Positions 13,455 to 58,803 of a stretch of 64,000 nt of DNA are shown in pieces. Positions within the stretch are counted from its first letter, which is position 1. Each line of letters starts with the position of its first letter. Source of the DNA: Parcubacteria group bacterium Gr01-1014_8 (lineage in GTDB: Bacteria > Patescibacteriota > Minisyncoccia > Phycocordibacterales > UBA2100); assembly GCA_007376385.1 (NCBI GenBank), contig VMGC01000001.1, positions 320,001 through 384,000 of the forward strand, read 5' to 3'. Below the pieces are notes generated by a model. It was not told the origin of the DNA and made no database searches. It saw only the letters and a program-made list of their open reading frames with translations. The position numbers and the translations under genes are program-made.

Positions 13455-13556
13455 TCAGGCGTGCTTCGAAAGAAAAGACCCTCCATTGCGGAGGGTCTTT
13501 TCGTGCGCGACCAGAGACTGCGAAAATCAGTCATTAGTGTTAGGATGTGCCTCTGT

Positions 13557-18386: not shown

Positions 18387-18440
18387 ACATAGCAAGGTCG
18401 GCGGTTGTCCACGCAAGGTCGGACCTTGCTTATATCTGCG
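18387..18440 (+). repeat. REP-like hairpin repeats (caaggtcgg...ccttg) at 5' end of transposase-like gene
   Basis: acatagcaaggtcggcggttgtccacgcaaggtcggaccttgc shares the motif caaggtcggacc with the repeats flanking the second transposase-like gene at 32819-32861 and 33573-33693. Confidence 0.5.
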
Positions 18441-19130
18441 TATTATACTGATTTGGTGGCAAAACGACGAAAAGTCGCCTATATAGCACCCTTTGATAGT
18501 GATAAGTACTATCACGTGCATAACGACGGAATTGATAGGCGAATACTATTCAGCTCCAAGCAGGATTTTGACCGCTTTGAAGCATATTTGTATCTGCTGA
18601 ATTCCACTGAAAGCCCGCGTGCGGCTAATTTTTTTACAGGCAATCGCCAGAACGAAATATTTCAAACGGGGAGAGGCGATAAATTAATAGCACTCGGAGC
18701 TTATTCGATCACGCCGCATGAATTTCACTTGCTTGCTGTGCCTCTGGTCGATGGGGGGATGGGGAAATTCATGCAGAAGCTTCAGACTGGATACACGATG
18801 TACTTCAATAGCAAGTACCAGCGTATGGGACGCATATTCCAGTCCTCATATAAGGCGGAATCAGCTCGATCAGCCGAGCATCTAAAATATATGTTCTGTT
18901 ATATTCATTTAAATCCTGCGCAGATCTTTGACAAAGAATGGGATTCGACAAACGAGAGGAGCGGACTTGCAACACACATATTGAGGGCAATGAATTATCG
19001 CTACTCGAGCGCAAATGAATATACCTCTCAAAAATTTATCATCACGACGCCGCATGAATTTCCGCCCTACATCAGAAGGGTGAGAGATGCGCGCGCGTAC
19101 TTGAAACTTTGGTCAAAGTTTAAAGAATAG
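18405..19130 (+). CDS. IS200/IS605-family Y1 (HUH) transposase-like protein, RAYT-like; variant HUH motif (HEFH)
   Basis: YYHVHNDGIDRRILF is the N-terminal Y1_Tnp motif. ITPHEFHLLAV aligns to PNHFHLML of the paralog at 32875..33561. FMQKLQTGYTMYFN and FQSSYKA carry the catalytic-Tyr region. About 50% identity to the second copy. Confidence 0.7.
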   Translation: MSTQGRTLLISAYYTDLVAKRRKVAYIAPFDSDKYYHVHNDGIDRRILFSSKQDFDRFEAYLYLLNSTESPRAANFFTGNRQNEIFQTGRGDKLIALGAYSITPHEFHLLAVPLVDGGMGKFMQKLQTGYTMYFNSKYQRMGRIFQSSYKAESARSAEHLKYMFCYIHLNPAQIFDKEWDSTNERSGLATHILRAMNYRYSSANEYTSQKFIITTPHEFPPYIRRVRDARAYLKLWSKFKE

Positions 19131-19320: not shown

Positions 19321-20274
19321 ATGGCTCATGAGATAGTTCTCGGCGATACGACATACATTTCTTCAAAGCGCGCAGCCGAGATTACTGGATATGCCCAAGA
19401 TTATATTGGCCAACTCGCGCGTGCGGGGAAGATAATTGCACGAAGAATTGGAGGCCTTTGGTATGTTCTCGAAGAGTCTTTAAACAACTATAAGGCTGTG
19501 GCAGAACTTTATGTAGCGACTCCACCTCGGATGGATGATTCATACGCTTCTGCCTCTAAGGTTGCTGACACCCTTATTTCATTTGATGGAAAAGAGTATG
19601 TTTCAGCATCAGAAGCGGCTAGGCAGACTGCATATCACCAAGACTATATCGGGCAGCTAGCACGTACCGGCAGGATTTTGTCTAAGCAAGTCGGAGCGCG
19701 TTGGTTCGTCGAATTAAAAGGTCTAAGGGCTCACAAAGCCGAAAAAGATGCTCTCTTGGCTGCGGTGCAGCGTGAATCAGTGGGCCTTGTCCGCCCTGCA
19801 AAGAGCGGTCCCGATGCCGACAACTACAAGGTGCATTTCACATATACAGCTGATGAGAGGGAACTCCTGCCGTCTCTCCTTCGCAAAGATGCCTCAGGCA
19901 GCAATATTCAGCAGGATGCGGCCGAGTTAGAGCACGTAATACCGATTCGTATTGTGCGTGTTCCTCAAAATCCGGCAACAAGCAGCTATTCAGCTCGATC
20001 TGCTACTCGCTCCGTGCGGTTGCGAGTAAGAAAACCCTTATATTATGGTAGCTTATCCGCCGTGCTGGTGACTGTAGTGATTGTCATCGCATTTCATATA
20101 AATATACTAAACGCTGTCCCGATATTCGCGAATACCAACAAGTCGGGCGTTTTAAAAAACACGGCTCTTGCGGGAATAATTATGAACGTCGCAGCGGACT
20201 TTGCGGATCTCGCTCATGAATTGTTAGGGAATAAAGTCATTTACAATCGAGGTTCATACAAGCCCGATTTCTAG
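19321..20274 (+). CDS. Tail-anchored membrane protein with two tandem HTH_17/excisionase(MerR)-like motifs
   Basis: YISSKRAAEITGYAQDYIGQLARAGKIIARRIGGLWYV and YVSASEAARQTAYHQDYIGQLARTGRILSKQVGARWFV are two copies of the same motif. A single TM helix LYYGSLSAVLVTVVIVIAFHINIL sits near the C-terminus, preceded by RLRVRKP (positive-inside). The same motif is at the N-terminus of the downstream 4051-aa protein. Confidence 0.55.
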   Translation: MAHEIVLGDTTYISSKRAAEITGYAQDYIGQLARAGKIIARRIGGLWYVLEESLNNYKAVAELYVATPPRMDDSYASASKVADTLISFDGKEYVSASEAARQTAYHQDYIGQLARTGRILSKQVGARWFVELKGLRAHKAEKDALLAAVQRESVGLVRPAKSGPDADNYKVHFTYTADERELLPSLLRKDASGSNIQQDAAELEHVIPIRIVRVPQNPATSSYSARSATRSVRLRVRKPLYYGSLSAVLVTVVIVIAFHINILNAVPIFANTNKSGVLKNTALAGIIMNVAADFADLAHELLGNKVIYNRGSYKPDF

Positions 20275-20315: not shown

Positions 20316-20339
20316 GTGAACACGGATTATCTCGGATGT
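20316..20339. promoter_or_regulatory. Perfect 24-bp palindrome (attatctcgga tg tccgagataat) between HTH-TM gene and giant gene
   Basis: Read directly: 11-bp arms with a 2-bp spacer, 40 nt after the upstream stop, with no T-tract. It therefore looks more like an operator than an intrinsic terminator. Confidence 0.35.
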
Positions 20340-20597
20340 CCGAGATAATCGCGACATTTAAGATATTGGTTATACGATGAGTCTAAAGCAATTGAATTCA
20401 TCTAAAAATACGAATTTCTGCAGCAATTAAGTGCATAAAATGCGATGTAAAGCCATGAGAGTTAGCGCAAATACAGCCGTCGCATAAGTTCGGATCACCA
20501 AAATCGTTCGATTTTATCCCCATGGATAGTGGATATGGGTGTCTGGGTGCCCGACATCGCTATTAAAATCTAGATAAGTCGTGCGGGATGATACTCC

Positions 20598-23500
20598 ATG
20601 TCTGATGAAATCTTTTTTGATGGTGTTCGATATATTTCGGCGCAGGAAGCTGCGACGTCGTTAGGTTTTTCGCGAGATTACATTGCGAGGCTTGCTCGAA
20701 TAGGCAAAGTCAAAGGCCGACAAATAGGAAAGAATTGGTACGTCGAATTTCGCTCAGTTCAAACGTTTGTCCTTGAGCAGGAGTACTTGCAGGGAAAGCG
20801 TAGAAAGGAGCTTGCGGAGAAGCGAGTCTTCGAATACCGCAAGCAGGTTGGCAGTACGGACGAGAGATCGAGCGATATTGTTGCCCCAGTTATTTTTGCC
20901 GATGCTGTATCAGTTTCTGCAAAGCAAAACAAGAGACATGCGGCTATTAAGGCGATGCTCGCGCGTGCAATGTCTCGCCGCGCCGACTTGAAGGTTCTGG
21001 CGCATGCGAACCGCGTTCATACGCCCTCGTTTTTTTCTGTGACGCCTGCCGTTGAGTTTCTGCACAAACTCACTGCTCTCATTACAGCGTTTGTACTGAC
21101 TTTTGGCGCGTATGCTTTTGTTAATGCGGACTACGCTCATTTTGCACTCGATTCTATACGCTCTGCTTCACGGAGTGTTGTTGCTGTCCCGAAATTGGTC
21201 TGGGGAGGTGATGCAGCACGTTGGGGTTCAGATACAGGTGCGCAACTCGCAGCTGTTGCATTGCAGACAGCTCAGTCGGCAAACCAAGCTGAATCATCCA
21301 TTACTTCATTCATGTCATCTGCCGCAAGAAATTTCAACCTTCACGTTAATGACTTATTGTACGGAGTTATTTATCCGAACATTCCTGGCATGGGTTCTTT
21401 CGCGTTCTCATCTGCGCGTGGCCGCGTCGATATTCAAATTGTTCCGTATCGCAGCGATGCGCCTGCAGCAAGATCGGCACCTGCTCCCTTGATCCGAACA
21501 GCAGTGTCAGCTCCAACAACTGTCATCAATCAACCGATAGTGGAACGCATCAGAGAGACGAAGAGCGTTGTCACGCTCGGCGGGATCAGTGAAGAGCTCC
21601 TAGCATCCAAGTTGCTTGAGCTCGACACCAAACTTTCTTCTCGCATGTTGTCGCTCACCTCTTCTAACGCAACGAGCATTACCCAGGTATATAACACCGT
21701 CGGCCAAATGGGTCGTATTGAACATTTAGATGATCTTGATCTTACAAACCCAACGATTACGAGAGGCACGTTGACGAACGTGAGGATCTCATCTCTTTCA
21801 GCCCCTCTCACAATCTCTGACGGCGGCACTGGAACCTCTAGCGCTCCTACGTATGGAAAAGTTCTCTTAGGAAATTCGAGCGGTGCGTATGATCTCGTCG
21901 CGACCTCATCGCTGGGTGTCGGCGGAACACCCGGCGGCTCGAGCACGCAGGTGCAATTTAACGATAGCGGTGCTTTCGGTGCGGATTCCACATTTACTTT
22001 CAACAGCACCAGCAATCTTCTTTCTTTCTCGAGCGCGTCATCTTCGTTGCAGTCTATTTTTGATCGCCTGTATGTCGGCGGAACGGCGACGACGACCATC
22101 TTCGGCTCCGCGACTTCCACCTTCGGGGCTGGTATCGAGACAACTGCCTTGAACGTTACTTCGAATAGCGCGAGCAGCACATTCGCAAACGGTATCTCGC
22201 TCTCTGCCGGGTGTTTCCGCGACGCGAGCGGGGCATGTCTGCAGAGCGCGACATTTGCGTATCTCTTCCCATCGGACGCAACCACAACCAAACTCACGTT
22301 CTCTGGCGGTTTGATCTCGCTCGCTTCAACGACGATCGGCAATGGCACACAAGCGGGAGGACTCACGATCTCCGGCGGCGCGACGACGACAGGGAATCTC
22401 TTGGTGCAGGGCAATGCGACGACGACAAACTTGGCAGTGTCTGGCACCGCATCGTCATCTGCCCTCGTCGCATCAAATTCATTTACGTTCTCGAATATAA
22501 CAGGCTTCCTCAAGGCGACCGCCGGCGTTGTCGCAACGGCCGCCATCAATCTCGCCTCCGACATCACCGGCATTCTTCCTGCTGGAAATGGCGGCACGGG
22601 ATGGGGCAATATCGCAGCGAACACGATCGTGCTTGGGAACGGCACGGGAGCTATCGCAACGACGAGCGCCGGCACCAACGGCCAGATGCTCGCGCTTGTT
22701 TCGGGAGTGCCGACGTGGACCGCGACGACCACATTCTCAGCCCCACTTGTATTTTTCGCAGGCAATGTCTCGATCGCAGCCTCGAATGGCAGCACAGACG
22801 GCTATCTCACTTCCGCTGACTGGACGCTCTTCAACAACAAAGTCTCTTCTTCTTCGCTCTCGACATTCACGGCAGCCTTCAAAGACTGGAACATTACGAC
22901 AAACACATTCGGCCAGTCCTCTCTCGCTCCAACAACAACGCAAAACATCGCAGTCACAGGCGTCGGCACATCCACATTCGCCGGAGGATTAGAAGCGTGG
23001 AGACAAATAGGCGCTCCATACTTCAACGCTACAAGTTCATCCGCAACGTCAACCTTCGCTGGTGGATTAAATGTGCTCGCCATTAACCAAACTGGTTCTG
23101 CGACATCGACGTTTGCGAATGGTTTGCAGCTTTCGAATGGTTGTATCCGATTACCCTCAGGGAGCTGCTTGGCATCTGTCGCAAATTCTTCGATTGATGA
23201 TCTTAGCGACGTCACTATCACCGCCGCCGCATACGGCGACCTTTTGATGCACAACGGGACTGCATGGGTTGATACTGCCACTAGTTCGCTTGGAATATTC
23301 ATTTCAGACACCGTTGGGACACTTGCCGTGGGGAGAGGAGGCACGGGGCTATCATCGACACCAACGTACGGCCAACTGCTCGTCGGAAATGCTTCGAGCG
23401 GCTACACGCTTTCCGCGACATCAACGCTCGGCATCGCGCTCTCTGACACCATAGGAACGCTGGCGGCGACACGGGGTGGTACAGGACTCTCATCCATCAC

Positions 23501-32500: not shown

Positions 32501-32753
32501 GGCATTCGACGGCCGCGTGTTCTACGAAGAAGATATCGTCGAGAACTCTCTGACAATATACGCCGACAAGTCCGGCTTTGTTTCTGCGCGGCTCATCGCG
32601 GACAGATTCGACGCAGAAACGTGGCCGAACATTCGTCCTGACCAGGACGGAAATACCGAAGGCACGCACAATATAACTTCGAAATTGCCGGGAGGGGTGC
32701 TCCGAGCGGCAGCTACAGCAACCGAAGCCGTCTCATCGTGGTTCAATGAATAA
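20598..32753 (+). CDS. Giant (4051 aa) repetitive Gly/Thr/Ser/Ala/Asn-rich surface fibre protein. N-terminal cytoplasmic HTH_17-like motif and one TM helix (N-in), then about 3880 aa of extracellular beta-rich repeats
   Basis: Single uninterrupted 12,156-nt ORF. N-terminus YISAQEAATSLGFSRDYIARLARIGKVKGRQIGKNWYV. TM helix LTALITAFVLTFGAYAFV at about aa 163-182. GNVGIGTTSP-x-x-KL recurs more than 10 times. The module DVAAMTENYGDLL-WNG--W-DLATSSLGI-ISDT-GTLA--RGGTG occurs 4 times. NTA-G--AL / NTTG beta-roll-like repeats. Two segments have near-identical DNA (about 27340 and about 30604; NTSPSYKLDVAGFINTDQFSGYKQ). Confidence 0.8.
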   Translation: MSDEIFFDGVRYISAQEAATSLGFSRDYIARLARIGKVKGRQIGKNWYVEFRSVQTFVLEQEYLQGKRRKELAEKRVFEYRKQVGSTDERSSDIVAPVIFADAVSVSAKQNKRHAAIKAMLARAMSRRADLKVLAHANRVHTPSFFSVTPAVEFLHKLTALITAFVLTFGAYAFVNADYAHFALDSIRSASRSVVAVPKLVWGGDAARWGSDTGAQLAAVALQTAQSANQAESSITSFMSSAARNFNLHVNDLLYGVIYPNIPGMGSFAFSSARGRVDIQIVPYRSDAPAARSAPAPLIRTAVSAPTTVINQPIVERIRETKSVVTLGGISEELLASKLLELDTKLSSRMLSLTSSNATSITQVYNTVGQMGRIEHLDDLDLTNPTITRGTLTNVRISSLSAPLTISDGGTGTSSAPTYGKVLLGNSSGAYDLVATSSLGVGGTPGGSSTQVQFNDSGAFGADSTFTFNSTSNLLSFSSASSSLQSIFDRLYVGGTATTTIFGSATSTFGAGIETTALNVTSNSASSTFANGISLSAGCFRDASGACLQSATFAYLFPSDATTTKLTFSGGLISLASTTIGNGTQAGGLTISGGATTTGNLLVQGNATTTNLAVSGTASSSALVASNSFTFSNITGFLKATAGVVATAAINLASDITGILPAGNGGTGWGNIAANTIVLGNGTGAIATTSAGTNGQMLALVSGVPTWTATTTFSAPLVFFAGNVSIAASNGSTDGYLTSADWTLFNNKVSSSSLSTFTAAFKDWNITTNTFGQSSLAPTTTQNIAVTGVGTSTFAGGLEAWRQIGAPYFNATSSSATSTFAGGLNVLAINQTGSATSTFANGLQLSNGCIRLPSGSCLASVANSSIDDLSDVTITAAAYGDLLMHNGTAWVDTATSSLGIFISDTVGTLAVGRGGTGLSSTPTYGQLLVGNASSGYTLSATSTLGIALSDTIGTLAATRGGTGLSSITNNQLLLGGAGNTVTQIATSSLNLLTTDIIEGSRLFYTDNRVDTYIHGSTTIPKTYTANTFTGANTFNSTFTLGTLNGPLHANAGVVGATTSVLAIYGGTGQTSYSTGDILYASGAAALSKLGIGGAGEVLKISGGVPTWGTDLTSGGGADGTWSTTTSQVSGTLINYPNNASDIVAIGSTATTSAEYWFDPNTTIAYLSGKVGISTTSPYSKLTLWGSASLFEAVNTSSTTIFSIGQSGATTTNLGISGIASSLLKTTSTGGVVAAIPDTDYLNTASSIELLGDVAAMTENYGDLLYWNGSAWADLATSSLGIAISDTTGTLAVARGGTGQTTFSSSQLLYGNGTNALSSVATSSLSAGTGVTFSGTAGSLVGGTALTINTPWTISGNNIYNNNIANAAIGTSTPYATTTIWGNTASKIFEVVANASSTVFSVAQSGATTTNLGITGVTNSLLKTTSTGGVVAAVAGTDYATLSQTFGKAWEIDGNGFTGFLAPTTTQKVWIGQASSTLLSVNGPAYFGSTATSSFSTAGVLTLATDLAVTEGGTGASTLTGLLQGNGTSAFTAITDSSTVGQILRVTGASTYAWGALNLADTDAITGTLPISNGGTNNTTYSTNALLYFDGTSITATSTRPLYVGAINATTTATSTFAGGISVLNFAQTGTATSTLANGLTLTGGCVMVNGNCISPVGNSSIEDLNDVAAMTENYGDLLGWNGSTWTDFATTSLFTGSNGQMLAYANGGWTGVATTTAGTGLTYTGSAFNVDLGTSISAAEIADGDHGDFTYTSGVAAIDANAVTLGTDTTGNYVATLADSGGGTLTISNSGSETAAVTASLNLGNANIWTGKQNFFGSASSTLFSANWLKVGQTASTTFDSAGNATIGGTLNVTGQTTLATSLTGLLKATAGVVSSATEGTDYLSNALRDWSVQGNGYLAPTTTRGIIVVASSTIGAGGQATGLTISGGATTTGNAYFAGNVGVGTAAPSQKLQVVNGAIDINTDDQFLYFGSGDAGIRESGANLKFETYTGAALTEKMRITGAGNVGIGTTTPATLLSIAGTSGLFASTTATSTFQGGGINLLTAAGNTGCFAVNGTCLSNTASGIVGSGTTGQFPYYAANGTTLTATSTLFVSTASNVGIGATSPAAKLDVEGSGAVLTDIMVGNSQANANFGISAAGVPHLWTNNASWPLVLGVGGAEKMRVHTDGNVGIGAGATGPGALLTVDSGAASLTDILVGNSQANANFGISAAGVAHLWSNNSSWPLAFGIGAAENMRIHTNGNVGLGNTSPSYKLDVAGFINTDQFSGYKQNGTTILYSSSTLATMFGGYQAGNGQVQSGTGLYNTAFGYQALLSATSSSRSTAVGFSALASQANANGNDARNTAVGSQALGGTTYGYYNTAVGSDALAANTTGYFNSAFGQGALTGNTTGRDNIAIGYNSVSQSTAALENIGIGNSSLSGASLTGADNIAIGRQAGSAMSSGSYNILIGQYLYNSGTVFTGSNNIIIGRDIGSTASPLVSTTTSNALNIGNLIFATSLGTADTLSTGNVGIGTAAPNYQLSNNSASNNLDSGSTGLSTASSFNWANNGSGYGAGLYNASANSDANGLLVKIRGTASTNKILSLDTGTTQAGAGTNVLTVLGSGNVGIGTTSPRSALYFQANSSDPSLTSWTGIGTMRASTGVELAMGADDTTPFGAWLQTKDSTNGGTSYPLLLNPLGGNVGIGTTTPQTALHVNGILAATPSYGFYWYNGATFKGALKHNSSNDNLEIYTASDGSTPRLTVQSSSGNVGIGTTSPVSILAVAGANPVLTLNQTSSGNVSGLKITNGVNTLGTFTVAIDTGEVRIGGTSSGGYYDTFYADGSERMRITAAGNVGIGTTTPQWLLNPTSASASQLALSAGAGIAQWTFRNAGGNLYLSTTTVAGTATTSISALEIAGGGLGTTTVRGLNISAGATSTSNVGFSLTSGCFATPAGCISGVGDSSIEALNDVAAMTKNFGDLLYWNGTTWTDLATSSLAVNFSDLIGSATDAQVTNALTISGGVISGTNTVSGTWNTTNTLTIGNGGDRIDVNSSGWDVTDSVISGATYQGNTIGTTYGGTNATGFSSHALLAFNGTSIVATSTIGFQSFNATSTTATSTIAGGLAVETSGLVYDYSTNRVGIGTASPSNKLHIASSANDSTLFIQQTSGTQRADIRIDNDGGYMLIGRENSAGGSLAVGSTGYFGVMNVNNAYGLQFGTNNTVRATIDSSGNVGIGTTSPATSLSVSGSGYLTGALGVGAVATGFTNLLVNDNSNTAHNNDEGIVVKNTNTGSSAGASINLRNDGTYHGFMQMNSGANTSLAGANSFNIGAEHNINFGFITNDALQMTLNTTGLGIGNTSPSYKLDVAGFINTDQFSGYKQAGNTILYASSTNATVFGGQGAGSAMQTSGTGAYNTAFGYGALTTATSSSRSTAIGFNALANQANSNGNDARNTAVGSDSLAATTYGYYNVGVGASALTANTTGAFNVALGVGALQTATSTNNVTAIGYNALGAMICCGPAGTTPANVVVGHQVARQATTAYGITGIGYGALDSLTTGHDIVALGSQAGHMVTTGTNSIFLGDLSGFKDSAGANTAITGDNNIIIGNNQLMIPNAAGSNQLNIGNLIFGTSLSTGATVSTGNVGIGTTSPRSILHAVAGASGVLPNAGTTFTMESNTANYLSMLTASNAANGILFGTPTSAIDAGILYNSNGSARDLQFRTGVNNTRMTIDSTGNVGIGTTTPFRKLSITDAVSTAQQAIAYDSTRWTDLLTDSVGDLTINPQGDDVFLNADNLWVCTGGSCPSGTPAGTGNLIVETKLGVASSTPFATLGVKGSAASTAYTFMTTNSSDSPTFNIQDNGNVGIGTTTPTKQFSISSLLYVGAGGATGMGTATSTFQGDIKIIGKLDVGTIDPVYTIDGTKYATYGHSTVGIKEEVTAKLAVNEYDEARDLYRTTIRFDELEKGSDLWLFYEITRFGLEWEHLVVNLTPAFDGRVFYEEDIVENSLTIYADKSGFVSARLIADRFDAETWPNIRPDQDGNTEGTHNITSKLPGGVLRAAATATEAVSSWFNE

Positions 32754-32818
32754 TTATGGTGAAAAATATGTTGTTTGGGATACTCGGAAATCGTGCGCTG
32801 ACTCCGGCCGAGGTGAAG

Positions 32819-32861
32819 CATCTCAAGGTCATATCGAGGTCGATATCAAGGTCGGACCTCG
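32819..32861 (+). repeat. REP-like repeat cluster, left flank of transposase-like gene
   Basis: atctcaaggtcatatcgaggtcgatatcaaggtcggacctcg: tandem atatc-a/gagg-tcg units with the hairpin cgaggtc/gacctcg. Confidence 0.55.
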
Positions 32862-32874
32862 ATACGCTTGTGTG

Positions 32875-33561
32875 TCACGGTGCCGCCGATTCCACGCGGA
32901 AGTCGAGCCATTCCGAGACCTGCGATTTAAAGTCGAGAGGCGAATCAAAGTACTCCGACAGCGCTGCGGCGTTCACGATGCGGCTCTCCAGACGTTTCTC
33001 ACGAGTGTAATCGTGAAAGCTCGACCAACGGTATCCGTCGAGGAATTTTTCCGCCGCGCGCCGGTTTGCGATGCCGGTTTCTTTCCAAGTCGGCTCGATG
33101 AGCTTGACGGGGTTCAGATGGATATACGAAACGAGGTATTTGAAGTATCGGTCGTCTGCCACGTGCGTCGCCTTATATTTCCCCTGAAAAAGGACGCCGC
33201 TTCGTTTTTGGCGGGTGTTAAAATACATCGTATACCCGGTTTGGAGCTTCTGCATGAATCGGGAAATACCGCCGTTCCTAATCTCACGAAGCATGAGGTG
33301 GAAGTGATTCGGCATGAGGCAGTGCGCGCATATGTCCACGAGCGGTTTTCCCCGATCAAGCGAGAGAAGATGGGGAAGAGAGGTCTGGATTTCGTTGCTG
33401 ATGTGCACGGTGTTCTCGCCGTTTGCAAGAAACAAAAGCGCGAGAAAGCGCTTATGGTCGGGTACAGAGGTAAAGATTTTCCGTTTTTCAGTGCCGCGGT
33501 TGTAGACATGATACGTCTCATCGACAGTAAACGGTATGCGTCTCATCTTCTGTATTTTCAC
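32875..33561 (-). CDS. IS200/IS605-family Y1 (HUH) transposase-like protein, RAYT-like
   Basis: ETYHVYNRGTEKRKIF; HUH in CLMPNHFHLML; FMQKLQTGYTMYFN; LFQGKYKATHV (Tyr); YIHLNP. Flanked on both sides by similar ~40-nt REP-like repeats in direct orientation. Confidence 0.75.
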   Translation of the reverse strand: MKIQKMRRIPFTVDETYHVYNRGTEKRKIFTSVPDHKRFLALLFLANGENTVHISNEIQTSLPHLLSLDRGKPLVDICAHCLMPNHFHLMLREIRNGGISRFMQKLQTGYTMYFNTRQKRSGVLFQGKYKATHVADDRYFKYLVSYIHLNPVKLIEPTWKETGIANRRAAEKFLDGYRWSSFHDYTREKRLESRIVNAAALSEYFDSPLDFKSQVSEWLDFRVESAAP

Positions 33562-33572
33562 TCGCGGTGCCT

Positions 33573-33693
33573 AAATATCAAGGCCCATATCAAGGCCCGA
33601 CCTCGATGGCGACGATGGCGATGGGAATGGAGATACTGTTGCCGACCGGCAGCAATATCTCAAATATCAAGGTCATATCAAGGTCGGACCTCG
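33573..33693 (+). repeat. REP-like repeat clusters, right flank of transposase-like gene
   Basis: aaatatcaaggcccatatcaaggcccgacctcgatgg (33573-33608) and atatctcaaatatcaaggtcatatcaaggtcggacctcgg (33655-33693) are near-copies of the left-flank repeat. Confidence 0.55.
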
Positions 33694-33703
33694 GGGGTGG
33701 TGG

Positions 33704-33961
33704 TTGCGCCTCGCCGCGAGGCGCTACGACACAGAAAAGTGGCCAAATCTACGGCCGGATCAAGACGGCTATACAACGGGCACGCATGTAATTAGTTCGA
33801 AGCCAAAGGCAGGCGAGCAGGCGAGGGATGAGAGCAAAGTGTCGCATGTATCGGCTGTAGTAACTGCGACCAGCGCTATCGCGCAGATCTCGTCATTCGC
33901 GACAAGTACCATTGAATTTGCGACCAGCACATTCTTCAAACTGCTAGCATGGTTTCAGTAA
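33704..33961 (+). pseudogene. Orphan 3' fragment paralogous to the C-terminus of the giant protein
   Basis: Encodes RYDTEKWPNLRPDQDGYTTGTHVISSKPK...TATSAIAQISSF, compared with the giant end RFDAETWPNIRPDQDGNTEGTHNITSKLP...AATATEAVSSWF. DNA identity is about 70%, so it is an old paralog rather than a fresh duplication. It begins inside REP-derived sequence. Confidence 0.4.
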
Positions 33962-34040: not shown

Positions 34041-34604
34041 TTGACAATGCGTAAGCGAGATTTCTTCTACATCGCACTTCTCTGCTTTCTGCCTGCAGCT
34101 GCCTTCGCGGTGACCATGACCGTAAACACTGTCGTGACGGGCAATGTAAGTGTAGTCGGAGCGCTCTCGAAGGGTTCCGGTACGTTCATGATTGATCACC
34201 CGCTTGACCCGAAAAATTCGCTCCTGTACCATTCGTTCCTCGAATCTCCTGACGTCAAGAACATCTACGACGGTGTCGCGAATCTCGACAAGAACGGAGA
34301 GGCCACGATCGCGTTACCAGGTTATTTTCTTGCACTCAACAAGGATTTCAGGTATCTCGCGACATCAATGAGCGGGCCTATGCCGAATCTGCATCTCATG
34401 CGCGGAGTTCGGAGAGAGTGGTTTGTAGGCGACCCTACATTCAGGATAGCTGGGGGCGTACCGGGCGGCACTATCTCCTGGCAGGTAACGGGTATACGCA
34501 AGGATCCTCTCATTGTCGCGAATCCTATTATAGTCGAAGTTGAAAAGGGTGCTGAAGCACTGATATTAAAGGGGGAGTGTCTCTTTGAACTCCTTTGCAG
34601 ATGA
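34041..34604 (+). CDS. Secreted protein, paralog 1 of 3 sharing an unrecognised ~140-aa C-terminal domain
   Basis: Signal peptide MTMRKRDFFYIALLCFLPAAAFA, then GSGTFMIDHPLDPKNSLLYHSFLESPDVKNIYDG...ISWQVTGIRKDP...ANPIIVEV...CLFELLC. Confidence 0.6.
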   Translation: MTMRKRDFFYIALLCFLPAAAFAVTMTVNTVVTGNVSVVGALSKGSGTFMIDHPLDPKNSLLYHSFLESPDVKNIYDGVANLDKNGEATIALPGYFLALNKDFRYLATSMSGPMPNLHLMRGVRREWFVGDPTFRIAGGVPGGTISWQVTGIRKDPLIVANPIIVEVEKGAEALILKGECLFELLCR

Positions 34605-35925
34605 ACATATAATTATCATGCACACAAAACTTTCGACATATTCGTTGTTTTGGTGGGCTCTTGCACTCATCGTCGGCATTTCTTTTTTGCTTGCGCTTCT
34701 CTTTCCTGTAGAGAGATTGTCAGCCGCGCCCACGGTAAAAATCTATCTTGATTCAGGAACATCATTCGTCATCCCCGGAGATTGGAACTCTTCAAACAAT
34801 TCTATCGAAGTTATCGGCGGCGGCGGCGGCGGCGGTACTCCAAGCGCTCTTTGTAGCGCCGGAGGAGGAGGCGGCGCATATTCAAAAGCCGCGAACGTCT
34901 CGCTTACGGCCGGTGCGTCGGTTACCTACGCTATTGGTGATCGCGGTATCGAACAGACGGCAGGGGGTGATACGTATTTTTGTAATTCGACGTTGAACTG
35001 CGCTTCCATTTCTGGTACTGCCGTGCAGGCAGGTGCGAAGGGCGGAAATGGCGCCAGCGGTGGCACTGGAGGATCTGGCGGTGCATCCGCAAGCGGCGTT
35101 GGAAGCACCAAATTTAGTGGGGGAAATGGCGCCGGAACTGGAAGCAGCACTGGCGGCGGCGGCGGAGGTGCTGCTGGACTAAATGGTGCAGGTAATAACG
35201 GCTCGGGAACAACTGGCGGTAGTGGCGATGCTGGAAACGGCGGTGCAGGTGGGACCGCAAATAATCCCGGTGGTGCGGGTACCGAATACGATTCTGTACA
35301 CGGTTCCGGCGGAGGCGGTGGCGGAGCAACGGGCGCGGGCGGTGGCGCAGCGGGAGGGAATTTTGGGGGCGCCGGCGGCGGCGGATGCGCATCTGGAGGC
35401 ATCGGTAAACGAGGGATGATTGTTCTTACGTACGTTTCGTCTGCGACTCTTACACTTTCCGGAAATGTTAAATTCGCCGGCAATTTAACCATCACTAGTA
35501 CTTTAGCAAAAAGCTCCGGCACATTTGTGATTGACCATCCGCTCACGCCGCGCACGCATCTTTTGTACCACTCATTTGTTGAATCACCGGAAGTGAAGAA
35601 TCTCTACGACGGTATTGCAAAACTTGACGCGCAGGGCGAGGTAGCAATCGAGCTTCCCGATTATTTTGAAGCACTGAACAAAGATTTCCGCTATCAATTC
35701 TTTCCTCACTTCGAAGCGATGCCTGGTCTCTATGTGAAGCAAGAAGTGAAGGACAACTCATTCATCATAGCTGGAGGAAAGCCGGGCGGAGAAATATCGT
35801 GGCAAGTCACGGGTATCCGCCACGATGCGTTTATTCTCGCAAATCCGATTATCGTTGAGGTCCCGAAAACAAACTCGACTGTCGTGCCGAGGGGTATGTG
35901 TCTGTTTGAGCCGTTATGCAAATGA
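34585..35925 (+). CDS. Secreted Gly-rich protein, paralog 2 of 3 (same C-terminal domain)
   Basis: N-terminal TM/signal. About 230 aa of extreme Gly-rich low complexity (VIGGGGGGGTPS...GGGGGGAAGLNGAGNNGSG...). The C-terminus SSGTFVIDHPLTPRTHLLYHSFVESPEVKNLYDG...ISWQVTGIRHDA...CLFEPLC is shared with the neighbours. Confidence 0.6.
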   Translation: MNSFADEHIIIMHTKLSTYSLFWWALALIVGISFLLALLFPVERLSAAPTVKIYLDSGTSFVIPGDWNSSNNSIEVIGGGGGGGTPSALCSAGGGGGAYSKAANVSLTAGASVTYAIGDRGIEQTAGGDTYFCNSTLNCASISGTAVQAGAKGGNGASGGTGGSGGASASGVGSTKFSGGNGAGTGSSTGGGGGGAAGLNGAGNNGSGTTGGSGDAGNGGAGGTANNPGGAGTEYDSVHGSGGGGGGATGAGGGAAGGNFGGAGGGGCASGGIGKRGMIVLTYVSSATLTLSGNVKFAGNLTITSTLAKSSGTFVIDHPLTPRTHLLYHSFVESPEVKNLYDGIAKLDAQGEVAIELPDYFEALNKDFRYQFFPHFEAMPGLYVKQEVKDNSFIIAGGKPGGEISWQVTGIRHDAFILANPIIVEVPKTNSTVVPRGMCLFEPLCK

Positions 35926-36647
35926 GCGCTGTTCAGAGTGCGACGGTGTGTGGCGTATTGTCACTTGTGTTGGCGATTCTTTTCCCCATGCGAACTTTCG
36001 CGGGCTACGCTGAAAGTGCGTATTACTCGCAGTCGACCTACTACTCGCAGTCGACCTACTACTCGCAGTCGACCTACTATTCACAGGGAACATATGTGAC
36101 GACGTTTAGCAATAACGCGACGGCGGGAACTAATTTCACCGTCGCGGGCACGATTAATAAAGGTTCCGGTTCATTCGTCATCGACCATCCGCTCGATCCA
36201 AAAAATAAGCTGCTCTATCACTCGTTCGTTGAATCTCCTGACGTGAAGAATTTCTACGACGGTATAGCAACGCTCGACACAAAGGGCGAAGCAGTCATTC
36301 GGCTTCCCGCGTATTTTATGGCACTCAACAAAGAATTTCGGTACCAACTAAAACCCATTGGCGGGCCGCAGCCTGATCTGCACATTAAGGATGAAATCTC
36401 AGGAAATCGCTTTACGATTGCGGGTGGCGGGCCACGCGGGCGCGTATCGTGGCAGGTCACGGGGATCCGTCATGATCCGTACATCGAAGCGAATCCTATC
36501 GAGGTCGAGGTAAAAAAAGGTACAGATCCCGAGAAAAGCGTCTTCGTGCTCTATGGAGGGTTTTTGCACGAGGACATTTATCCGCAGACGATCCAACCCG
36601 CGATATCTACATATATGAGAAAGATACTTAGTTTGTTCGGCAATTGA
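35916..36647 (+). CDS. Secreted protein, paralog 3 of 3 with (STYYSQ)x4 tandem repeat and shared C-terminal domain
   Basis: Signal peptide. AYYSQSTYYSQSTYYSQSTYYSQGTY is a perfect 18-nt tandem repeat at 36031-36084. The C-terminus is GSGSFVIDHPLDPKNKLLYHSFVESPDVKNFYDG...VSWQVTGIRHDP. Confidence 0.6.
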   Translation: MQMSAVQSATVCGVLSLVLAILFPMRTFAGYAESAYYSQSTYYSQSTYYSQSTYYSQGTYVTTFSNNATAGTNFTVAGTINKGSGSFVIDHPLDPKNKLLYHSFVESPDVKNFYDGIATLDTKGEAVIRLPAYFMALNKEFRYQLKPIGGPQPDLHIKDEISGNRFTIAGGGPRGRVSWQVTGIRHDPYIEANPIEVEVKKGTDPEKSVFVLYGGFLHEDIYPQTIQPAISTYMRKILSLFGN

Positions 36648-47342: not shown

Positions 47343-47450
47343 AAGGTTCCTCGGAGCAAGCTCCGAGGTATTATGGAGCTCGCTTCGCTCGCGCAGTCTC
47401 GCAGCAGAGCTGCGAGATATTGAACCTGTGTTTGCTCCTCGGCTCGGAAA
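47343..47450 (-). repeat. Intergenic repeat family, L-part copy C (inverted, with 46-nt internal insertion)
   Basis: The reverse complement gives atttccgagccgaggagcaaacacaggttcaata[46-nt insert]cctcggagcttgctccgaggaaccttt, matching 52281-52334. Contains the perfect hairpin cctcggagc-ttg-ctccgagg. Confidence 0.6.
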
Positions 47451-52280: not shown

Positions 52281-52467
52281 TTTTATTTCCGAGCCGAGGA
52301 GCAAACACAGGTTCAATACCTCGGAGCTTGCTCCGAGGAACCTTTATCTGTCGAGGATAGCAAGCGAAATGCGAAAGTGCAGGTTTCGCATTTCCGAGCG
52401 ACACAGACAGCAAAGGTTCAAAGCCCCGCGGCTTGCCTGCCTGTGCGATGCACGCAGACAGGCCGCG
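52281..52467 (+). repeat. Intergenic repeat element, most complete copy B (L-part 52281-52334 + R 52335-52467)
   Basis: R is identical to 16111-16243 apart from 1 nt. The L-part matches the inverted copy at 47343-47450. R overlaps the last 41 codons of the minus-strand gene P8. Confidence 0.75.
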
Positions 52468-58775: not shown

Positions 58776-58803
58776 AAACGAGCCCTCGAGAGAGGGCTCG
58801 TTT
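58776..58803 (+). terminator. Candidate intrinsic terminator after rpe (12-bp perfect stem aaacgagccctc/gagggctcgttt, weak T-tail)
   Basis: Read directly. The stem is GC-rich, and the 3' side ends in cgttt and is followed by agc. Confidence 0.35.

Follow-up and report, generated by a model that had tools for sequence, protein, structure and literature searches.

The stretch of DNA analysed here, hereafter the window, comprises 64,000 nucleotides (positions 320,001 to 384,000) of contig VMGC01000001.1 from Parcubacteria group bacterium Gr01-1014_8 (assembly GCA_007376385.1). Shortly after the stop codon of a giant gene, the window carries a small minus-strand gene encoding a Y1-type HUH protein, which is bracketed by palindromic repeat modules (M1 on its stop-codon side, M2 and M3 upstream) and followed by an orphan open reading frame (ORF), fragment B, resembling the end of the giant gene. 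We consider it probable that this arrangement represents a module of the RAYT class with its own cognate hairpins, and that the ancestral tail of the giant gene was displaced in connection with this module.

The original prediction had recognised a RAYT-like Y1 HUH gene at this place (32875-33561). That ORF, which opens with a GTG codon, is indeed present, and its product matches the Pfam family Y1_Tnp (PF01797) with 35.7 bits at a cut-off of 23 (E=1e-8); the database gene call starts at the ATG, the protein with this start having an exact match and the one with the GTG start none. The likeness to RAYTs was borne out by the motifs, by the fold and by the palindromes of the homologues. In an alignment of 33 members NHFH, LFQG, YIHLNP and Y(R/x)WSS/YSS are fully or almost fully conserved, and the enzyme retains the predicted catalytic residues, with the HUH motif at H81-F-H83 and the putative catalytic tyrosine, Y141, inside YIHLNP. 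According to Table 1 of Quentin et al. (2018, PMC6006769), subclass 2.1 is characterized by NH[YF]H, FQ, Y[IV]HLNP and SS in the proximal tail, and subclass 1.1 (IS200/IS605) by a Y---Q tyrosine motif and D-H-[VI]-H; judged by this match of motifs, the gene is a member of RAYT/TnpA-REP class 2 and is subclass-2.1-like. The other traits of class 2 are likewise found, since besides the Y---NP motif it displays low copy number, synteny groups of up to ten genomes and flanking cognate palindromes. More than 7400 homologues were retrieved, the closest non-self match being 64% identical; almost every one forms a cluster of its own and belongs to Patescibacteria (Kaiser-, Adler-, Vogel-, Nomura-, Yonath- and Zambryskibacteria), and the clusters at 90% identity hold 1-5 members. 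The AlphaFold model (pLDDT 87.5) has a sole PDB match below E=0.001, namely 4ER8 (E=1.3e-4), the TnpA-REP of E. coli bound to a REP hairpin, with the IS608 and ISDra2 transposases next in the fold search. A profile search of PDB sequences with the 33-member alignment yielded nothing at E<0.01, which indicates that the clade is divergent, and Pfam at E up to 1 returned only Y1_Tnp in all 33 members, with no helix-turn-helix (HTH), Bac_DnaA_C or DnaA-like domain.

The repeat unit ATATCAAGGTC, allowing one mismatch at most, occurs eight times in the window compared with 0.91 expected, and none of 100 shuffles reached eight. Seven copies, all on the + strand, fall within 32820-32853, 33575-33597 and 33664-33685, in agreement with the predicted repeat clusters in direct orientation on both sides of the gene, and the eighth is located at 18389. 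The palindrome AAGGTCGGACCTCG, with up to two mismatches, is found in the window only at 32848, 33592, 33680 and 18414/18415. This fourth site had not been part of the original prediction, nor had the second Y1 paralogue which it accompanies (37% identity to the Y1 gene, E=8e-43), just upstream of which the perfect palindrome CAAGGTCGGACCTTG (18414-18428) is placed. Each module is composed of units of 11-12 nt ending in the palindrome CAAGGTC-G-GACCTCG; read on the gene strand, a cluster has a single left arm and, behind it, two or three right arms in tandem with a period of 11-12 nt, and the full reading of M1 is TATCGAGGTC-C-GACCTTGATA-TC-GACCTCGATA-T-GACCTTGAGATG. M1, M2 and M3 stand in direct orientation, with a common asymmetry CGAGG...CCTTG on the gene strand, and M1 as single-stranded DNA folds well (z = -4.8 for the gene strand and -3.5 for the other strand). 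Perfect palindromes with arms of at least 9 bp number seven in the window versus 1.3 in shuffles, the one at 33706-33724 among them. Between 32000 and 34600 Rfam gave no known RNA, only one chance-level match to a CRISPR direct repeat (E=0.87). Elsewhere in the window a pair of palindromes, CCTCGGAGC-AA/TT-GCTCCGAGG at 47349-47368 and 52319-52338, mutual reverse complements, may constitute a second low-copy palindrome family, and further long perfect palindromes lie at 13472-13502, 20325-20350 and 58776-58803.

Table 1. Features of the Y1 locus and of the second Y1 paralogue in the 64-kb window; position 1 is the first letter of the window.
Feature	Position	Strand	Remarks
Giant gene, 4051 aa	20598..32753	+	ORF list; C-terminal domain with homologues at 57-72% identity
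Last 54 codons of the giant gene ("tail A" region)	32589-32750	+	Copy that came with the module
Spacer of 65 nt, giant stop codon to M1	32754..32818		Sequence
M1, stop-codon-side (downstream) palindrome module	32819..32864	-	TATCGAGGTC-C-GACCTTGATA, single left arm, then two more right-arm copies, period 11-12 nt
Y1 HUH gene, 223 aa from ATG 33546	32875..33546	-	Alternative GTG start 33561; Pfam Y1_Tnp
Degenerate relic of an in-gene palindrome	33379..33394	-	CGAAATCCAGACCTCT on the gene strand; canonical position ~+155-165; from sequence
Promoter-like site: TTGATA, 16-nt spacer, GAAAAT	33554..33581	-	-35 hexamer within the M2 right arm
M2, promoter-proximal palindrome module	33573..33607	-	One left and two right arms, two wobble positions
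Imperfect, unrelated hairpin between M2 and M3	33630..33661	-	Fold -7.9 kcal/mol, z = -2.3
M3, outermost upstream palindrome module, with a second promoter-like site	33655..33695	-	Outer edge is the putative right-hand boundary of the incoming segment
Perfect palindrome at the junction	33706..33724		GCGCCTCGC-C-GCGAGGCGC, made by the first codons of fragment B
Fragment B, displaced ancestral giant-gene 3' end	33704..33961	+	Last 36 codons of the C-terminal domain and a long tail
Second, anciently diverged Y1 paralogue with upstream half-site and palindrome	18389..19130	+	Gene 18456-19130; HEFH instead of HFH; CAAGGTCGGACCTTG within 18389-18428

The flanks of the gene were compared in 80 genomic loci of Patescibacteria (labelled L003, L048, L072 and so forth) carrying homologues at 47-60% identity, which together with the window gene amount to 81 genes. 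A palindrome is present upstream of 72 of the 81, over the -35 box, with its centre at a median of 38 nt before the start codon; its right arm, ACCTTGaca, provides the -35 hexamer. In 54 of these 72 loci a -10-like box follows the hairpin, and the start codon is mostly found 6 nt past this box, which implies a leaderless mRNA. A palindrome directly at or after the stop codon accompanies 69 of the 81 genes, and 47 of them have an in-gene copy at about +156 nt, coding for the variable loop QG(R/S)TL on the N-terminal side of the HUH motif; the degenerate relic in the window gene coincides in position with these in-gene copies. The sequence of the palindrome is genome-specific, yet it matches among the copies of one genome, the in-gene copy included, as illustrated by CCCGAGGACCGTCCTCGGG at -67, +168 and +689 in L074 and by TACATAGGGGAGTCCTATGTA at -54, +162, +679 and +700 in L048; TACAAGGTTCAACCTTGTA serves as an example of the consensus family hairpin. 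Upon alignment of 90 hairpins, only AGG and CCT around the 5-nt centre proved invariant (AGG-N5-CCT), the foot positions vary freely, and a 5' GT[AG]G tetranucleotide is not conserved. The original prediction had taken direct rather than inverted repeats for a variant of the classical RAYT arrangement, a distinction that loses its meaning here, given that the repeats are near-perfect palindromes and that the loops of upstream and downstream copies are in direct orientation in 30 loci and inverted in 22.

At the stem positions all four Watson-Crick pairs occur, with few non-pairs. The covariation amounts to 287 double-change cells, as opposed to 102±9 in shuffled alignments (0 of 500 shuffles as high; slid controls 54-124), a figure that has to be read with the ascertainment bias that the hairpins were chosen as palindromes, whereby the paired percentage is inflated; the real evidence lies in the presence of a palindrome at all in 72 of 79 loci, with stems unrelated in sequence. 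Because the stems appear to co-vary without sequence conservation, we argue for a hairpin or cruciform as the probable functional form, and not for a duplex operator. Away from the module, the 17-mer core proper to each genome (at most two mismatches) was detected 13 times in 605 kb, with fewer than 0.1 expected by our own estimate from 17-mer frequencies; these distant copies are mostly found just past stop codons, and some lie in frame inside large ORFs. At L041:7677, L042:7351, L081:8397 and L029:8928 the own Y1 palindrome was observed inside very large ORFs convergent with the Y1 gene, and in at least 9 of the 81 loci the module borders on a convergent ORF longer than 1000 codons.

Another feature observed near the hairpins are perfect DnaA boxes (TT[AT]TCCACA), which abut cognate hairpins in 13 loci (L038, L046, L048, L050, L063, L066, L067, L069, L071, L073, L074, L077 and L081), often about 40-50 nt past the stop codon, their density being 0.50 per kb in the Y1 flanks versus 0.059 per kb elsewhere in the loci. 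In L069 the DnaA box belongs to the dispersed repeat itself, and at the site of the second paralogue in the window GGTTGTCCACG stands between half-site and palindrome (18399-18413). Some proteins of subclass 2.1 have a DnaA-C-like domain. A link to the origin of replication (oriC) was considered and rejected, since the neighbours of the Y1 locus in the window are secA, gatB and an HTH gene, with no dnaA nearby, and the protein has no DnaA-like domain in Pfam. A doublet AAGGTCTGACCTTAAGAA...CCAAAGGTCGGACCTTTAT was noticed a few kb upstream of the Y1 gene in L048:1610-1650, L077:1400-1440, L056:1557-1600 and L071:1097-1130; it stands in a similar context in four genomes and may belong to a conserved RNA or coding sequence, and not to a REP.

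The second part of the finding concerns the end of the giant gene. Fragment B shares 23 of 36 residues with the giant C-terminus (last 54 codons; E=6e-16, a significant alignment), and the DNA identity between A and B is 71% over 75 nt and 64% over 108 nt, in accordance with the homology and the identity of about 70% originally proposed. Fragment B starts at most 12 nt from the outermost palindrome and has the same orientation as the giant gene, on which ground an inversion was rejected as the origin of the orphan. Only two close relatives of B were found among 5.8 billion proteins: that in L083 is contiguous with a C-terminal domain, and that in L082, 79% identical, stands apart from any giant gene, behind a HepT toxin gene. 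A ratio of nonsynonymous to synonymous substitution rates (dN/dS) of 0.20 between B and the L082 copy suggests that the tail was translated for most of their divergence. In L082 (2-620) the relative of B is truncated some 22 codons farther upstream, at a distance of 85 nt from the preceding HepT (HEPN) toxin gene, and in L003 a HicB antitoxin gene sits between module and orphan; toxin-antitoxin genes may travel with these rearrangements.

The polarity of the change was assessed by comparison with syntenic loci, which were obtained from a scan of metagenome contigs. L088 is syntenic with the window, as it contains gatB, a homologue of the second paralogue (47%) beside gatB and the HTH gene, a shorter giant gene, and g187-, g446- and g396-like genes. 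There the giant gene runs without interruption into a long B-type tail (...SKPKGGE...ATSTLMKLFAWFR), and no Y1 gene is located between the giant gene and the g187-like gene. Likewise, L087 and L089 have the same arrangement and no module, with a box GGTATACT ahead of the g187-like gene, a box that also follows B in the window. Since in these three module-free loci a contiguous B-type tail stands directly before the g187-like gene, gene order shows fragment B to be the ancestral giant-gene 3' end, in its native place before the gene at 34041-34604, and not the stray paralogous end envisaged in the original prediction. The segment that came in extends from about 32589 to about 33700 and comprises tail A, stop codon, the 65-nt spacer, M1, the gene, M2 and M3; its insertion, as reconstructed from this comparison, left the giant gene with a shorter, new tail and the old one displaced. 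The likeness of tail A to a specific foreign short tail, P0142, stops at 'KL-GG'. In L091 the site between the giant gene and the next gene holds a divergent Y1 gene (27% identical), followed by arrays of CAAGGTGGT units and by CAAGGGGCGCCCTTG palindromes, and in L084 (Kaiserbacteria) an opposite-strand module follows the stop codon of a giant gene whose C-terminus is 68% identical to that of the window; the window, L084 and L091 each have this giant-gene 3' site occupied independently. The spacers from giant stop codon to palindrome in the window and L084 displayed no significant similarity (p ~0.26) that would indicate orthology of the two insertions.

A host segment present on both sides of a module is a recurrent topology. 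In L072 a stretch of 604 nt, 89% identical between its two copies and comprising the first ~570 nt of a prepilin peptidase gene together with the 26 nt ahead of it, is found on either side; the upstream palindrome marks the exact point at which the first copy breaks off, and the second runs on into the full gene. L003, which is syntenic with the window on the side of g446/g243/g396, has 87 nt (80% identical) of the tail of a convergent 1085-aa gene repeated beyond the module and the HicB gene, abutting the g446-like gene, and in L078 a duplicated host segment of 44 nt flanks the module. The distance between the novel junction and the outer edge of the outermost upstream palindrome is 0-12 nt in the window, in L072 and in L078.

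Modules that are resident at one site offer a view of what happens at the palindromes. In ten genomes a Y1 module lies between one conserved pair of neighbours, one of which is gyrA, and in 3 of the 10 it is flipped relative to both neighbours (L011, L018, L020, L021, L023, L028 and L032 versus L052, L075 and L076). The Y1 gene of L084 (region L084:740-1420) is truncated exactly at the in-gene palindrome, with 61 codons remaining, and is followed by three further copies of TATCGACCT-NNN-AGGTCGATA and by an inverted duplicate of a portion of its 5' region. These inversions and this truncation mark the palindromes as sites of inversion and deletion, and show that the modules are low-copy and often conserved in synteny, yet invert and decay at their palindromes. 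It was further observed that the giant stop codon of L084 falls in a palindrome half-arm, TAGGTCGATA, and that the palindrome there has the outer arms TATCGA...TCGATA as in the window, with an 'inside-out' core.

Taken together, the locus is a low-copy module of Patescibacteria similar to REPtrons and TIRtrons, and the following mechanism may be envisaged. The protein would bind its cognate hairpins, either as single-stranded DNA or as an extruded cruciform, and would cut and rejoin at the hairpin foot, and the palindrome copy in the promoter could allow autoregulation. A DNA molecule derived from a donor would then contain the module and adjacent host DNA, with one end set at the outer edge of the upstream palindrome and the other, past the downstream palindrome, within the gene next to it. 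A single (Campbell-type) crossover in the homologous gene end would integrate this molecule and leave the gene end duplicated on both sides of the module. We infer that a single crossover with a molecule carrying X and a copy of S is the simplest route to an order 'S, X, S', and the fact that one junction regularly falls at the upstream hairpin points to the hairpin foot as the place where this end arose. The recombination that changes the giant C-terminus through the element, as originally proposed, is in this respect substantiated as a replaced tail physically tied to the palindrome, the role of the enzyme in it being putative. The further possibility that the module is an active unit, in which the enzyme starts at the outer foot of the upstream hairpin, sometimes overruns the downstream hairpin, and so excises the module with a piece of the neighbouring gene, a molecule that re-enters a related chromosome by homologous recombination so that the gene end is duplicated or replaced, we regard as speculative and unlikely. 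If true, it would represent an undescribed remodelling of gene ends driven by RAYTs in the reduced genomes of Patescibacteria, affecting C-terminal tails of giant surface proteins and the 5' part of the prepilin peptidase gene, and landing would preferentially take place at the 3' end of genes of the giant family, as its independent occupation in the window, L084 and L091 suggests.

Several alternatives were weighed against the probable reading of a RAYT-class module linked to the displacement of the tail. It is conceivable, albeit rather improbable, that the palindromes have a purely regulatory or structural role, as operator over the promoter and as terminator, and that the tail was swapped through horizontal import of an allele by one homologous and one illegitimate crossover, the Y1 enzyme being uninvolved and the module a passenger. 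The placement of the upstream palindrome over the -35 box and of the downstream one at the stop codon is what would be expected in that case, the strong divergence of A and B suggests a foreign allele, short tails are natural in other lineages, and modules convergent to large ORFs in at least nine loci make a 'giant then module' donor plausible. Nevertheless, the passenger explanation does not account for in-gene copies that co-vary with the flanking ones despite altering the protein sequence, for copies dispersed after other genes and within ORFs, for modules that invert and truncate at palindromes, or for novel junctions next to the outer edge of the upstream palindrome in three independent loci. 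Independently of how the segment came in, fragment B could be functional, either as a small protein expressed on its own or as a silent cassette for switching of the giant tail. This seems quite unlikely to us, even though its frame of 85 codons is intact and free of stops, a G-rich stretch precedes its TTG start, its tail part is more conserved (synonymous difference, pS, 0.31) than its domain part (pS 0.76), and the dN/dS of 0.20 was obtained against a copy that is likewise detached. In fact, the low dN/dS equally fits a long shared history within an intact gene, the ~140-residue bulk of the domain is absent, no promoter-like site on the + strand stands in front, an identity of 64-71% to tail A over ~100 nt is too low for efficient homologous switching, and homologous copies number only two in 5.8 billion proteins.

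The original prediction had also labelled the gene as IS200/IS605-type, which would make the locus the product of a recent transposition of an active insertion sequence (IS) into the giant-gene 3' end. A Y1 HUH protein, hairpins in the same orientation at both ends as in IS200/IS605, and a site that is empty in L087-L089 are in line with this scenario, which is nonetheless highly improbable, as the protein has the class-2 motifs YIHLNP and NHFH and not Y---Q, no tnpB is adjacent (the neighbours being the giant gene and fragment B), and no near-identical copies are known, the only other copy in the window being 37% identical and the clusters at 90% identity single-member. Moreover, many homologues sit in a synteny conserved among relatives, elements of this type do not duplicate ~160 nt of target, and the insertion brings a diverged copy of host coding sequence. 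The label was rejected for these reasons.

Other points weigh against the reading that we prefer. M2 and M3 alone are poor hairpins (z = -0.9 and -2.9), a weakness that the original prediction had not noted, and a G.T at stem position 11/23 of the gene strand is seen only in the three copies of the window; since this asymmetry (G.T/A.C) is found in no other locus, the window module itself may be decaying. In the window, the palindrome is restricted to the two Y1 genes and occurs nowhere else. The gene-strand wobble test gave 20 G.T versus 10 A.C, which is weak for a single-strand function, and the NCBIfam RAYT equivalog NF047646 is matched with 43.6 bits, below its cut-off of 80. Synonymous divergence (dS) between A and B is saturated, which together with the 64% identity implies either an old displacement or the participation of a foreign allele, and a remodelling of the junction is possible. 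Finally, a topology identical to that proposed would result from tandem duplication followed by deletion, from replication slippage at the palindromes followed by deletion, or from homology-facilitated illegitimate recombination during gene transfer without any Y1 activity.

The exchanged tail of the giant protein, 20-50 residues long, has no Pfam match. With regard to the neighbouring genes, the gene after fragment B encodes a paralogous secreted protein. It is part of a row of three genes (34041-36647; 187, 446 and 243 aa) with a common C-terminal domain (…GSGTF(M/V)IDHPLDP…YHSF(L/V)ESP…), which also ends the 1085-aa gene beside the L003 module; the 446-aa protein has in addition a glycine-rich region (Pfam Gly_rich_2, below cut-off). 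The motif GxISWQVTGIRKD of this domain resembles GFVSARLIADRFD of the giant protein, a likeness which suggests a distant kinship of the two C-terminal domains. At the other end, the giant N-terminus (20598-20760) resembles the N-terminus of the preceding 317-aa HTH_17 protein (19321-20274), and in L088 both queries match identical stretches; an HTH_17-like start is unusual for a giant surface-type protein.

The kind of arrangement described here is already known from REPtrons, in which RAYT/TnpA-REP genes are flanked by their cognate REPs (Nunvar 2010, PMC2817692; Ton-Hoang 2012; PMC6006769; Corneloup 2021, PMC8266576), and from TIRtrons, whose TIRYT genes are associated with 'moderately abundant' repeat families (Di Nocera 2013, PMC3733652). 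As in REPtrons, a single- or low-copy Y1 HUH gene with a class-2 Y---NP motif is bracketed by cognate hairpin-forming palindromes that co-evolve with it, its inheritance is vertical and housekeeping-like, and its best fold match is the E. coli enzyme on a REP hairpin (4ER8). Unlike in REPtrons, the hairpins of the window family lack the 5' GT[AG]G tag, their invariant part is located at the tip (AGG-N5-CCT) and not at the foot, distant copies amount to about one per 47 kb in the loci compared instead of more than 100 per genome (PMC2817692), the -35 box incorporates one of the copies, and the flanking copies may face either way. The motif signature and the length of ~220-240 aa are those of subclass 2.1, which corresponds to group 1 of Bertels (2017, PMC5581495), where the 16-mers flanking the RAYT number about 12 per replicon; as in TIRtrons and group 1, the flanking repeats can be wholly self-complementary and their families only moderately abundant. 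In contrast to TIRYTs, the terminal inverted repeat (TIR) motif GGGGWSAS is absent, the AGG-N5-CCT core being found instead, and the C-terminal part has no detectable Bac_DnaA_C or HTH domain. Quentin et al. (PMC6006769) report no REP-like structures beside subclass 2.1 genes, whereas cognate palindromes are near-universal in the clade of Patescibacteria, a host phylum that the surveys of subclass 2.1 and TIRYTs did not cover. Subclass 2.4 is the only one for which REP copies lying in frame within the enzyme gene have been described (PMC6006769), and the clade resembles it in having a palindrome copy within the gene with the frame intact; it differs in the single fixed site of this copy (~+156 nt, on the N-terminal side of HUH) and in its covariation with the flanking ones. 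A tie of TnpA-REP to the diversification of gene ends was proposed for picocyanobacteria and later qualified by the same authors (bioRxiv 10.1101/2020.03.09.984088). A literature search returned no link between Patescibacteria and RAYTs or IS200-type palindromes.

The displacement of the giant tail also has parallels outside the RAYTs. In Rhs and CdiA genes, recombination within the conserved part brings in a new gene end, and the old end survives as a downstream orphan that still has a stretch of the conserved region. Similarly, fragment B keeps the end of the conserved region and a variable tip, which is in frame in L087-L089 and L083; unlike in Rhs/CdiA, the part swapped is a tail of 20-50 residues with no pair of toxin domain and immunity gene, and the imported piece carries a Y1 module. 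In IS91 and ISCR elements, adjacent DNA is mobilised by one-ended read-through by HUH enzymes (rolling-circle transposases of the Y2/Rep-like type), and the present loci are comparable in that one end is fixed at the element and the other runs into neighbouring host DNA, as suggested here by topology. To our knowledge, no read-through of the IS91/ISCR type has been documented for Y1 enzymes of the RAYT class.

What is new, accordingly, are the host phylum, the clear hairpins where none had been reported, in a subclass-2.1-like clade, the invariant bases around the 5-nt centre of the hairpin in place of a GTAG foot, the fixed layout of three sites with one copy in the promoter, and the recurrence of duplicated or displaced gene ends next to the module. 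Enzymes of the RAYT class are 'domesticated transposases' of wide distribution, and no cognate hairpins had been found for their largest group (subclass 2.1, group 1). The Patescibacteria clade offers a clean case, in which one gene is accompanied by three positionally fixed and co-varying hairpins, in the promoter, within the gene and at the stop codon, with visible footprints of activity in the form of inversions, truncations at the hairpin and duplicated host segments ending at the hairpin edge. For annotation, the finding accounts for small orphan ORFs beside 'transposase' genes in genomes of the candidate phyla radiation, and the C-terminal tail of a giant surface protein is shown to have been exchanged. 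The clade thereby supplies substrates that can be tested biochemically, together with the hypothesis that enzymes of the RAYT class may reshape the genes next to them.

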